The notes under the pieces are model-generated. The model worked only from the letters and a program-made list of their open reading frames with translations. It searched no databases and was not told where the DNA came from. The translations under genes were made by a program, and so were the position numbers. From a virus (Duplodnaviria > Caudoviricetes), in the IMG/VR virus record IMGVR_UViG_3300030433_001358, positions 1 to 64,000 of that record: DNA of 64,000 nt, one strand, 5' to 3'. Below are positions 7,241 through 10,446 of this stretch, in pieces; position 1 is the first letter of the stretch, and each line of letters begins with the position of its first letter.

Positions 7241-8593
7241 TTGATTTATGATTTGAGTAAGATGAATGACCTAGACGTACACACTCTGTCTCTAGGTTGT
7301 GTAAAGAGCTATATCTATTACCATGACTCTAAATACTACAAACACATAACGGAACATTTCCTATCCCTAACAGGTGGGAAGTATGAGAAGGGGGTGAAGT
7401 GGTTTGTATCCAATATGGCAAGAGCTATGAGAAAGGGAGCACAAGGATTCCGCATATCCTTAGATGGTCATACATACACAAACAACAAACTGAAGATTGG
7501 GTTTCGTGGGGTGAAAGGGTTTTTAGAGATTCTTGAAGAAAGGGGGTATATTGACATTTACAAAGGTACTGTCTTGCATTGGAAAGTGGAAGGTGGTAAG
7601 CGCATGCCTGAACAAATCATCCCATCTTGTATTATATTCAAAGCAAGGACTATAAGTCTGTGGGGAGGAGTTAAGATTCCTAACTTATGGAAGGAGCTTG
7701 AGGATGCAGCTTGCGTAGAGATCAGGAACAGAGAGAGTCGAGATCAGATCAGCACAAAAGGAAAGAATGGTGTCAAAGAAGTGAGGAACCAAGTGATTAA
7801 ATATAATGATAGTTTGTCTGGTGCTAACATCCTTTTTGATGGTAAGCCGATTGCAGATGTAGAGTATAAGAGGGTGTTCTTGGATTCAATACATATTGCT
7901 GGGAGGATTTATGCTCAAGGAGGTGGTGTGCAACTGCTACCACAGAAATTACGTTCTGAGAGATTGACAATTGATGGAGAAGCTGTTGTTGAACTTGACT
8001 ACAGTGCCATACACCCTAACATCTGTTATCAGCTTCTGTTGACTTGTGACGGATTTAATGTTAAGGATGTTATGGGAGATGATTTCAGTCCTTACGGGGC
8101 TGACCTATCTTTTATTGAAGTTAATGAGGAAGCTGTTAAATACAAAGAGTCCATTACAGGTAAGAAGCATGATCCTCTGCGTAACTTGGCTAAGATGGCT
8201 ATCTTGATTGGTATGAATAGTGCAGATAAAGCTCAAGCTGTAGCTGGGTTGTCTAACAAGATTAGGAATGATAGTGATAACCCTGTAGCTAGTCAGCAGT
8301 TCTATGGTCTTGGTAAGATCAGTTCTCAATCTGTGTTAGACGCATTGAAAGAACATAACGATTTTATCTCCAATCAGTTCTTTTCTGATAGAGGTGTATT
8401 CTTACAGAATACAGATAGTAAGATTATGATGGAGGTTGTTGACATTATGATTCAGAAGGGTCATACTATCCTGACATACCACGACTCAGCTATCGTAAAG
8501 AGTAGTGCAGAAGAAGACCTACGAGAAGCAATGATAGCAGCTTGGTTGTTTGTAATGGGAGATACTACGTTTTGTAAAGTGGATAAGAAATAG
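7241..8593 (+). CDS. family-A polymerase-fold protein without an exonuclease domain (TV-Pol/ssRNAP-like candidate)
   Basis: GRIY, motif A ELDYSAIH, motif B-like LRNLAK, motif C YHDS; 450 aa; TTG start after AGGAG. Confidence 0.6.
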   Translation: MIYDLSKMNDLDVHTLSLGCVKSYIYYHDSKYYKHITEHFLSLTGGKYEKGVKWFVSNMARAMRKGAQGFRISLDGHTYTNNKLKIGFRGVKGFLEILEERGYIDIYKGTVLHWKVEGGKRMPEQIIPSCIIFKARTISLWGGVKIPNLWKELEDAACVEIRNRESRDQISTKGKNGVKEVRNQVIKYNDSLSGANILFDGKPIADVEYKRVFLDSIHIAGRIYAQGGGVQLLPQKLRSERLTIDGEAVVELDYSAIHPNICYQLLLTCDGFNVKDVMGDDFSPYGADLSFIEVNEEAVKYKESITGKKHDPLRNLAKMAILIGMNSADKAQAVAGLSNKIRNDSDNPVASQQFYGLGKISSQSVLDALKEHNDFISNQFFSDRGVFLQNTDSKIMMEVVDIMIQKGHTILTYHDSAIVKSSAEEDLREAMIAAWLFVMGDTTFCKVDKK

Positions 8594-8601
8594 GAGACTA
8601 C

Positions 8602-8895
8602 ATGAAATACACAGGACAGATACAAGAGTGCAGAGTGCTGTATGACAATCCATTTGACCTATGGCATCCTCTGTTCTTGGTAACAGATAGACAACAGATA
8701 GAACAATGTCTAATGTCACTACCGTGTGTTCCAACAAGAGATGCATTTTTGAAAGGAATGATGAGATTGACAAGGGGGAATATCAATCCTGCACTTGTGC
8801 TTGAGGTGTATGATAGTGTAGTGAGTGATGTTGTACTTGACACAGAGCTAGAACACATTATACTAAACAACATAGATGATCTGTATGAGGAGTGA
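8602..8895 (+). CDS. hypothetical protein
   Basis: 97-aa ORF, AGGAG SD. Confidence 0.7.
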   Translation: MKYTGQIQECRVLYDNPFDLWHPLFLVTDRQQIEQCLMSLPCVPTRDAFLKGMMRLTRGNINPALVLEVYDSVVSDVVLDTELEHIILNNIDDLYEE

Positions 8896-8908
8896 GGAGG
8901 ATTACTGA

Positions 8909-9076
8909 ATGAAACCGTTTCTACCTGTATGGGCTAAAGATGGGAATCAAGTGTTGAGTATGGTGGAGGATATATTTGTTGATCGTCTTGGTAATCAAGC
9001 TCTGATTGAATATGTCTATTGGAAAGATAAGAAAGGTAAGCAGCACAAATCAGTTGCATGGGTGAGGTGGGAATGA
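8909..9076 (+). CDS. 55-aa hypothetical protein (not in the ORF track)
   Basis: GAGGAGG SD, MKPFLPVWAKDG...VRWE; ATGA overlap with the next gene. Confidence 0.6.
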   Translation: MKPFLPVWAKDGNQVLSMVEDIFVDRLGNQALIEYVYWKDKKGKQHKSVAWVRWE

Positions 9077-9297
9077 ATAATTATATCAAAGAGAAGTGTT
9101 TCATCTCTAAACTCCTTGGCATTAGTCAGAGACGTATTGAAATTGATGACCAACATCCCTGTCCAGAAACAGTAATCTTTATTGATGGAACGTATCACGG
9201 CTATCTGGATCAAGAGTTCTATGATTTTATGGAACACGGATTAGACCCGCATGGAGATTTTAAAGACTGGATTGATGAGTGGAGGACTACTGGATGA
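9073..9297 (+). CDS. hypothetical protein
   Basis: Start reassigned to the ATG overlapping the previous stop. Confidence 0.65.
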   Translation: MNNYIKEKCFISKLLGISQRRIEIDDQHPCPETVIFIDGTYHGYLDQEFYDFMEHGLDPHGDFKDWIDEWRTTG

Positions 9298-9530
9298 ACA
9301 AGAAATCAATTGATGCTGTAAGAGCCTCTAATAGGCTTTCTGGAGTTGAAATCAGTGAGGATATGGGTAAGCACCTCCAAGACCTAGAAGATGGTGTAGT
9401 GGAGCTATCTGAGGTGATTGCGGAGCGTAAAGCGCACTATGCTAAACCAAATAATCTATCTGTTGACGATGCATTTGATTTGGTGTATGGGAGATATGTA
9501 GATACATTTGAGAAACTATCGGAGGAGTAA
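9294..9530 (+). CDS. putative VbhA-like/Phd-like antitoxin mimic
   Basis: GGAGG SD, ATG at 9294; ASNRLSG resembles the VbhA SxxLEG helix; C-terminal helix is in register with the P1 Phd C-terminus. Confidence 0.5.
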   Translation: MNKKSIDAVRASNRLSGVEISEDMGKHLQDLEDGVVELSEVIAERKAHYAKPNNLSVDDAFDLVYGRYVDTFEKLSEE

Positions 9531-9967
9531 TGAACATTATAAAGAACTATCTGTTTGCAAGGACTATCTGTAAGAAGTATGGTTATAAGCTGAAGTTGCA
9601 TTTGGATGCTGGTAGTGCATGGGCTGTGTTCAATGAGTATACAGGAGTACGAGAGATTCATATTAGCTTGTTTGATCGCTACTTCAAACAGACGTTCTTA
9701 CATGAGCTTTCACATCTCCGTAGCTTTACACGGATGGAGAATCGTGGACAGAGTTCTTGTGATGCAATGGAAAATCCTATCCTTCGTTTTACAGAAGAAT
9801 CTAGAGCATGGTTGTTTGCTAAACGTATCTTGAAGGGTGAGTATGATTCAGAAGAGAGTAAGGATTGCCTGTTGAGTTATAGTCACTGGCACTATCACAA
9901 ACAAGTGAAGCCTATGATGGTGAGTGAATATACAGATAATTTTGTTAAATGTATGCGGAGGGTGTGA
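9530..9967 (+). CDS. putative zinc metallopeptidase (ImmA/IrrE-like)
   Basis: FLHELSH (HExxH) plus downstream EESRAW third-ligand-like motif. Confidence 0.6.
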   Translation: MNIIKNYLFARTICKKYGYKLKLHLDAGSAWAVFNEYTGVREIHISLFDRYFKQTFLHELSHLRSFTRMENRGQSSCDAMENPILRFTEESRAWLFAKRILKGEYDSEESKDCLLSYSHWHYHKQVKPMMVSEYTDNFVKCMRRV

Positions 9968-10167
9968 TGGATTTTGAGAAGTGCATAAACGCATTATATG
10001 AGTCTAAAGGGAATACTTACACGTTAAAAGAAGCATTATAATGCCCTACACGGTGGGGAGCATATTGTTTTTAGAGTCTCTGGTAGATTTTGACTTTGAT
10101 AATGCACTTACGTTGGACCAGCTTCCAGAATCATTGCAAAATAAATTACAATTAGTTTCTAAAACTA

Positions 10168-10197
10168 TTGACTTTTGAAGATTTGTCATGCTATAAT
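10168..10197 (+). promoter_or_regulatory. sigma70-type promoter, extended -10
   Basis: TTGACT, 18-nt spacer, TGcTATAAT. Confidence 0.65.
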
Positions 10198-10236
10198 GTA
10201 TTTACTAACTGAGAATAATAACAAAGAGAAACACTT

Positions 10237-10446
10237 ATGGAACTACGATGCAAAGCATGTGACATTAAACTTACGGGGGATGACTTCTTCATCAAGAAAC
10301 ATGAAGATACCGATGAAGATGAAGACCTCTGCTCTACTTGCCGAGATGTTGTATTTTCGGGAGATGATATTGATACCCGAGAATATGCTTTTGAAGATTT
10401 AACAGAAATTACTAATATTATACGAAAAAGCCTTTACAAAGCATAG
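10237..10446 (+). CDS. small Zn-finger-like protein
   Basis: CKAC...CSTC. Confidence 0.65.
   Translation: MELRCKACDIKLTGDDFFIKKHEDTDEDEDLCSTCRDVVFSGDDIDTREYAFEDLTEITNIIRKSLYKA

Follow-up and report, generated by a model that had tools for sequence, protein, structure and literature searches.

Class I Fic antitoxins, represented by VbhA, FicA (YhfG), and BiaA (PF18495; PDB 3SHG, 3ZC7, and 5NH2), are small helical proteins. The three helices of an antitoxin of this family, together with the toxin helix α1, form a four-helix bundle (PMC8401265). The inhibitory glutamate outcompetes the γ-phosphate of ATP for the second arginine of the Fic motif, and the E-to-G mutants of all three Fic classes are active and toxic; in particular, the E24G substitution in VbhA lifts the inhibition, and VbhT stays active and toxic (PMC3667792). 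The VbhA E24G mutant itself is available as PDB 3zcb_B. SoFic is a Fic-based system of anti-phage defense (PMC12249575). In the literature searched, we found no experimentally characterized phage inhibitor of a Fic protein.

Two other described systems are relevant to the locus analyzed here. One is P1 Phd (PDB 3DD7, 3K33, and 3KH2), which ends in an amphipathic C-terminal helix of approximately 21 residues. The other is provided by the XRE-COG2856 pairs, such as ImmR-ImmA, DdrO-IrrE, and CapH-CapP, where a gene for a small protein precedes a gene for an IrrE/ImmA-like protease with the HExxH motif. Proteases of the COG2856/M78 group are commonly paired with a small upstream XRE partner, forming toxin-antitoxin-like or repressor-cleaving modules.

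Here, we describe a 78-aa gene from a virulent phage that, with high confidence, combines a toxin-less VbhA-type domain devoid of the inhibitory glutamate with a conserved C-terminal helix, and that is coupled to a gene for an M78-like protease. Like VbhA, FicA, and BiaA, its product is a small protein, predicted to be helical, that carries the signature of the inhibitory helix, AS-x-RL-x-G-x-E, followed by G...S-x-VI in register. In contrast to these antitoxins, it has serine in place of the inhibitory glutamate, scores below the Pfam cut-off, is encoded by a virulent phage with a Fic toxin neither adjacent nor elsewhere in the genome, carries a 28-residue C-terminal extension with a conserved helix of its own, and is coupled to the protease-like gene. 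VbhA-type antitoxins as such are already known; this gene is set apart by the lost glutamate, the C-terminal tail, and the protease neighbor.

The Phage Genome and the 78-aa Gene

The analyzed stretch of DNA, referred to below as the window, has a length of 64,000 nt and constitutes the first 64 kb of a viral record of 83,875 bp, which has direct terminal repeats and is estimated to be complete. In its major capsid protein, the phage shares 56% identity with Limnohabitans phage DC31 (Pakpunavirus), 51% with Curvibacter phage P26059A, and ~47% with the PAK_P1-type Pseudomonas phages. Based on these identities, the phage is assigned to virulent myoviruses of the Pakpunavirus/Felix-O1-like type. 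The complete 83,875-bp genome contains no match to PF02661 (Fic/DOC), and the control search was positive in 7 of 14 genomes. The preliminary description had reported no Fic/Doc toxin gene near the 78-aa gene, and this orphan status holds for the entire genome. Neither the 78-aa gene nor its 145-aa downstream neighbor is present in phages DC31 and P26059A.

The gene occupies positions 9294..9530 of the plus strand, stop codon included, with identical start and length in the relatives P0001 and P0002, and its translation agrees with the residues quoted in the preliminary description. A Shine-Dalgarno sequence, GGAGGA, can be read at positions 9281..9286 of the same strand, 7 nt before the ATG. 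Further upstream, a promoter-like site at 8837..8864 (plus strand; a consensus match only, at 11 of 12 positions) may serve the small-gene operon 8909-10178. Both neighbors are coupled to the gene: the stop codon of the upstream ORF overlaps its start as ATGA, and its own stop codon overlaps the start of the 145-aa gene as TAATG.

The distribution of the gene is extremely narrow. Searches covering 5.8 billion clusters and 1.84 billion representatives yielded no more than three relatives: two alleles of 78 aa, with 96% and 94% identity, and one 104-aa fusion, the latter in contig L001. A scan of IMG/VR found none, and a narrow VbhA pattern scan of the same collection was likewise empty; tblastn of the protein against phages and plasmids gave no match. 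The phmmer search against PDB sequences returned weak unrelated matches only, ESM Atlas provided no usable feature match for this protein, and PADLOC gave no match. Comparison with the 94% identical allele from contig L002 revealed 14.5 synonymous and 6.5 non-synonymous differences, that is, a pN/pS ratio of 0.13; the ratio equals 0.12 for residues 1-47, with 7 substitutions counted, and 0.13 for residues 48-78. Hence, the ORF represents a genuine accessory gene that evolves under constraint and has a very restricted distribution.

The N-Terminal Domain

Residues 5-50 (positions 9306..9443, plus strand) very probably constitute a diverged domain of the VbhA/FicA type, that is, of class I Fic antitoxins. 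The match of the Pfam profile PF18495 (VbhA) to the protein extends over profile positions 3-43 of 47; its score of 19.3 bits (E 0.0011) is below the curated cut-off of 25.9 bits. At E up to 1 it is the only Pfam match of the protein; moreover, it is the single PF18495 match in the whole phage genome (E 1.3e-4 per genome).

For profile-profile comparison, the VbhA reference sequence was checked against PDB 3zc7_B and 3shg_B, 54 close homologs were gathered, and a Bartonella-centered profile was built from 21 of them. This profile produced an hhalign probability of 43% (P 2.4e-4) and an HMMER score of 6.8 bits, exceeded by 5 of 5000 shuffles; it was too narrow, and a broader set of members was needed. 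The resulting profile, A5, consists of 19 members, 14 of which are genome-derived and score above the Pfam cut-off, and five come from the earlier homologs. The genome-derived members originate from six-frame Pfam searches of five genomes and of 401 genomes of one phylum. Against A5, hhalign gave a probability of 93.2% (P 2.9e-7), with residues 5-50 spanning the whole domain. Across runs, the probability was 93-94% with P from 1e-7 to 3e-7, and a re-run yielded 94.3% with a score of 36.8, to be compared with 17.9 for the best of 200 column shuffles and 9.5 for the reversed query. Removal of the members without glutamate still left 90% (P 1.7e-6), and thus the domain match does not depend on these unusual members; two orphan members of the latter kind, L045 and L046, taken alone produced 88%, with 32% identity over 41 columns.

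Hence, remote homology to class I Fic antitoxins is found by profile-profile comparison across the whole domain, and the suggestion of the preliminary description that the N-terminal half follows the VbhA/FicA pattern holds true in both the Pfam and the hhalign comparisons, with clean shuffles. Residues A11, S12, R14, L15, G17, E19, G34, E37, S39, V41, and I42 of the 78-aa protein are in register with A19, S20, R22, L23, G25, E27, G42, E45, S47, V49, and I50 of VbhA, respectively. BLASTP of the protein against VbhA and against L045 produced no alignment, and the likeness to VbhA is detectable solely at the profile level. A tblastn search of phages with P0057, a VbhA member of the phrog_18905 type, also gave no match, and phage T5 contains no PF18495 match. 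An apparent occurrence of "VbhA" in a paper on a Hafnia phage was in fact the string "vB_HalM".

The single-sequence AF2 model (pLDDT 71, pTM 0.32) contains helices at residues 4-15, 22-48, and 57-77. At this quality (pTM 0.32), the predicted helix 1 stops at the motif, similar to the inhibitory helix of VbhA, whereas residues 22-48 are modeled as one helix instead of the two seen in VbhA, with no break at G34, which corresponds to the VbhA turn. Foldseek (PDB) and a wide VIA-align search with the same pTM-0.32 model found generic helical matches only, the best with Z 5.2.

The Inhibitory Motif and Its Relatives

The inhibition motif (S/T)xxxE(G/N) corresponds to S12-N-R-L-S16-G17 at positions 9327..9344 (plus strand). 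As had been noticed initially, serine stands in place of the inhibitory glutamate: in the alignments Ser16 (codon 9339-9341) is the counterpart of VbhA E24, and it is invariant in all three known alleles. The other positions of the contact motif A-S-x-R-L-x-G-x-E are kept and are also invariant in all alleles. Two attributes of class I Fic antitoxins, the inhibitory glutamate and a cognate Fic toxin in the replicon, are accordingly absent here. Given the replacement of glutamate by serine and the precedent of VbhA E24G (PMC3667792), canonical Fic inhibition is not expected.

In the set of 14 genome-derived members that pass the Pfam cut-off, this position is occupied by glutamate in 11, by aspartate in two, and by serine in one. 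One of the proteins with aspartate, L053, is encoded next to a Fic gene; the other, L046, and the one with serine, L045, have no Fic gene nearby. Both of these score above the Pfam cut-off for VbhA: L045 (ASLNLSG, 90 aa) with 29.5 bits and L046 (ATLELDG, 64 aa) with 28 bits. Their genes lie on the minus strand (L045:1459-1731 and L046:1477-1671), and the respective genomes carry unlinked Fic genes. These two proteins may represent a Glu-less orphan subfamily of VbhA. They resemble the 78-aa protein in having serine or aspartate at the glutamate position and no adjacent Fic gene, but differ from it in being encoded by bacterial chromosomes or conjugative elements in the presence of unlinked Fic genes, and in having neither a comparable tail nor an HExxH neighbor. 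By eye, one of the two genes is located near a TrbL/VirB6-like gene and the other near an exonuclease I (sbcB)-like gene.

The C-Terminal Tail

The tail module, residues 51-78 (positions 9444..9527, plus strand), comprises a linker and a conserved amphipathic C-terminal helix, predicted by AF2 at residues 57-77. The preliminary description had aligned this helix, without gaps, to the Doc-neutralizing tail of P1 Phd, and had accordingly considered the whole protein as a two-in-one mimic of antitoxins against two toxin classes, Fic and Doc. The Phd peptide given there is correct (residues 53-73; PDB 3dd7_B and 3kh2_E), but the alignment itself is at the chance level, with four identities in 21 positions and a BLOSUM62 score of 9 (shuffle p 0.015 for that one register). 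An equal score is reached by 0.7% of the 21-mers in ORFs of the window, so that 21 of the 77 window ORFs of at most 120 aa (27%) hold a 21-mer matching the Phd tail equally well; when only C-terminal 21-mers are considered, the score is reached in 2 of 139 ORFs, presumably including the 78-aa ORF.

The similarity with P1 Phd is restricted to the presence of an amphipathic C-terminal helix. Unlike Phd, the 78-aa protein lacks the PhdYeFM_antitox domain (Pfam, E up to 1), the phage has no Doc gene, and the sequence similarity is not significant; no Phd is present among the PDB sequence matches at E up to 10. Of the three attributes of Phd/YefM antitoxins, that is, the N-terminal domain, the Doc-binding helix, and the Doc partner, none was found. 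Judging from these comparisons, any amphipathic helix would be expected to resemble Phd to this extent. Given the chance-level match of the tail and the absence of PhdYeFM, the two-in-one reading loses its second half: nothing links the tail to Doc.

Residues 31-78 (positions 9384-9527) also show a weak match to the start of the GatE/GatB helical domain (TIGR00134 in NCBIfam, E 0.0022; PDB 2d6f_C, residues 433-482), with the pattern L.E...E.K....LS.D.A..LV....VD.FE.L.E. This match is probably due to chance, and yet it is at least as good as the match to Phd.

Module Loss and Mosaic Structure of the Gene Cluster

The tail can occur separately from the N-terminal domain. As seen in the DNA alignment and in the sequence of P0003, the related contig L001 lacks ~143 nt corresponding to positions 9286..9428 (plus strand) of the window, and with this segment, the stop codon of the upstream ORF and the entire VbhA module are gone. 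The resulting protein P0003 (L001:6001-6315, corresponding to 9073-9530 in the window) joins the Y11B-like ORF in frame to the C-terminal 31 residues of the 78-aa protein; within this 104-aa fusion, the tail is still constrained (pN/pS 0.11). In the window, the upstream small ORF (phrog_1541) extends over 9058..9297 of the plus strand, with the likely true start at 9073; P0003 has a precomputed match to PF26882 (Phage_T4_Y11B). In L002-L005, the upstream gene is a different, T4_Y16D-like one, and homology, as determined for L002, begins ~18 nt before the ATG of the 78-aa gene. In all three contexts, the tail is followed by the same 145-aa gene, whose start is overlapped by the stop codon of the tail.

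The VbhA module is thus dispensable in at least one setting, that of L001, and the tail may be a separately conserved module, having its own function or tied to the downstream HExxH gene. A different explanation would be that an in-frame outcome simply keeps translation running into the downstream start, without any function of the tail; besides, an in-frame junction is expected by chance in one case out of three. For these two reasons, the L001 fusion is suggestive but not decisive.

The small-gene cluster at 8602-10446 is mosaic, with neighbors swapped between the window, L001, and L002. In L001, a Cys-rich 62-aa ORF takes the place of the 55-aa ORF of the window. The same early-type cluster includes, at 10237-10446, a 69-aa protein of phrog_10364 with the CxxC...CxxC pattern, which is likely a zinc-ribbon mini-protein. 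The gene at 7241-8593 encodes a 450-aa member of phrog_4756, whose homologs in phages of Aeromonas, Vibrio, Rheinheimera, and Pseudoalteromonas are ~30% identical to it; the homolog in Pseudomonas phage vB_PsaM_M1 is labeled "DNA polymerase", while others are hypothetical.

The Downstream HExxH Protein

The gene downstream (9530..9967, plus strand) encodes a 145-aa protein similar to IrrE/ImmA (Peptidase_M78), as suggested by its motif, phrog_87, and ESM Atlas. It contains HELSH at residues 58-62 and EESRAWLFAKRIL approximately 27 residues later, a combination that we take to fit the ImmA/IrrE (M78) pattern. The match to phrog_87, "metallo-protease", is weak (E 0.003), Pfam gives no match, and the AF2 model is poor (pLDDT 42). 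The ESM Atlas model of the protein has pTM 0.83; its neighbors there are IrrE N-terminal-like, Peptidase_M78, and ArdC-type protease structures with TM 0.56-0.69, along with many small phage proteins. From these predictions, the protein looks like a minimal zincin similar to the IrrE/ImmA (M78) or ArdC proteases. Its gene shares the narrow distribution of the 78-aa gene.

The order of the two genes is the same as in the XRE-COG2856 pairs, with a small upstream protein followed by an HExxH protease. In contrast to those pairs, the 78-aa protein is not an XRE helix-turn-helix protein, no repressor target is evident in a lytic phage, and the protease is a minimal form detected only by the motif, the weak PHROG match, and the ESM Atlas look-alikes. 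At all nine inspected loci with VbhA-family or sub-threshold matches, no HExxH gene is adjacent, and therefore the pairing of VbhA with M78 is not a general rule.

Discussion

The likeliest, albeit tentative, explanation of these observations is that the 78-aa protein, an accessory product of the phage, binds to a Fic-fold protein of the host in a non-canonical manner. It consists of two modules, a diverged Fic-antitoxin domain (residues 5-50) and a conserved amphipathic helix (residues ~51-78). The target of the first module would be a host Fic-fold protein, either a FicT-type toxin or a Fic-based defense protein such as SoFic; a host protein is the likeliest candidate because the phage itself has no Fic or Doc gene. 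Binding might occur by completion of the four-helix bundle with the toxin helix α1. The Ser16 form would be unable to compete with the γ-phosphate of ATP for the second arginine of the Fic motif. Since the glutamate is missing, any neutralization must be non-canonical; it could proceed by sequestering or sterically blocking the target, by displacing its antitoxin in the host, or by handing the target over to the coupled M78-like protease.

We infer Fic binding, and by extension a possible counter-defense role, from the homology to VbhA, the preservation of the contact motif apart from the glutamate, the bundle-completing mode of binding in this family, the absence of Fic/Doc genes in the phage, the constraint on the gene, the existence of Glu-less bacterial members in genomes with unlinked Fic genes, and the SoFic precedent; the location among the small genes of a mosaic, early-type cluster and the absence of the gene from the nearest sequenced phages are also counted in its favor. 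The points against it are the missing inhibitory glutamate, the sub-threshold Pfam score, the single AF2 helix over residues 22-48, the generic character of the fold matches, and the loss of the VbhA module from L001, where the rest is kept. With this balance, we consider Fic binding a possible function, held with less than even confidence. What the analysis itself shows is that the first module is homologous to VbhA, that its motif is altered, that the phage has no toxin partner for it, that the protein is modular, and that the gene is coupled to its neighbors and under purifying selection.

Several other explanations have to be weighed. A chance ORF, or a chance resemblance of a genuine protein to VbhA, would be consistent with the PF18495 score below the Pfam cut-off, with sub-threshold PF18495 matches (E up to 1) in 11 of 14 control genomes, and with several bacterial matches of 21-24 bits that belong to other families, e.g., SHOCT-like ones. 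However, no control genome has a PF18495 match at E ≤0.001, the hhalign probability of 90-94% comes with clean shuffle and reversal controls, and the ORF has a synonymous excess, a Shine-Dalgarno sequence, and coupled neighbors. A meaningless feature is hence very improbable, being already largely refuted by the selection, shuffle, and member-removal results. Equally improbable is the original reading of a fused anti-defense protein whose N-terminal half neutralizes FicT/VbhT-type toxins while the tail neutralizes Doc in the Phd manner. The VbhA homology of its first half is real, the tail is indeed a C-terminal amphipathic helix, and few ORFs of the window reach the Phd score at their very C-terminus; but four identities with a score of 9 occur somewhere in more than a quarter of the short ORFs, both the PhdYeFM domain and Phd matches in PDB are absent, the GatE match is at least as good, and even the first half has lost the glutamate required for Fic inhibition.

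Two further scenarios accept the domain but not the function, and we regard both as unlikely, although deserving more attention than the preceding ones. According to one of them, the protein is a degenerate captured Fic antitoxin, whose function was lost or now concerns an unrelated host or phage protein, so that the likeness to VbhA is historical rather than mechanistic. This agrees with the loss of the catalytically essential glutamate, the dispensability of the module in L001, and the extreme rarity of the gene, with only three alleles among 1.84 billion representatives; in addition, the extra C-terminal helix could take the place of the toxin helix within the bundle in cis, so that no toxin would be needed, as may be surmised from the family architecture (PMC8401265) and the AF2 helices. 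It is less easily reconciled with the retention of the remaining positions of A-S-x-R-L-x-G-x-E, which contact the Fic active site and are invariant in all alleles, and with the pN/pS of the N-terminal module, which, with 7 substitutions counted, implies continuing constraint. According to the other scenario, the main rival of Fic binding, the protein serves as an inhibitor, chaperone, or substrate adaptor of the 145-aa protease, with the VbhA-like fold reused without any link to Fic or with the tail docking the protease. Here, the TAATG overlap is preserved in all three lineages, the pair is intact where the upstream gene has been replaced (L002-L005), the tail and the protease gene stay joined and the tail stays constrained where the VbhA module has been lost (L001), the two genes are equally narrow in distribution, and the COG2856/M78 proteases set a general precedent for small upstream partners. 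On the other hand, such close packing with overlaps is common among early operons of phages, and the 78-aa gene is coupled to its upstream neighbor in the same way (ATGA); the nine loci mentioned above have no HExxH gene; L001, lacking the VbhA module, argues that the module is not needed to tame the protease; and the M78 assignment itself relies on the motif, the weak PHROG match, and ESM Atlas, with Pfam empty and the AF2 model poor. Finally, elements of Fic binding and protease partnership could be combined in an adaptor-protease pair for counter-defense, in which the Glu-less domain would recognize, but not inhibit, a host Fic toxin or defense protein and the tail would dock the co-translated protease, which would destroy the Fic protein; the tail would then be a portable handle for different recognition domains, cf. 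the Y11B-like fusion in L001. We consider such a pair quite improbable.

Fic-domain proteins are toxins and, as exemplified by SoFic, agents of anti-phage defense. A phage-borne VbhA-type domain that lacks specifically the inhibitory glutamate would be informative. If it is a degenerate relic, the gene is of little consequence. If the 78-aa protein does not neutralize a Fic protein, this would mean that an antitoxin fold has acquired a different role, perhaps that of partner or adaptor to a small M78 protease. If it does neutralize a Fic protein, it would reveal a non-canonical way of doing so. The module-deleted allele of L001 and the single-residue difference in the motif make both questions directly testable.
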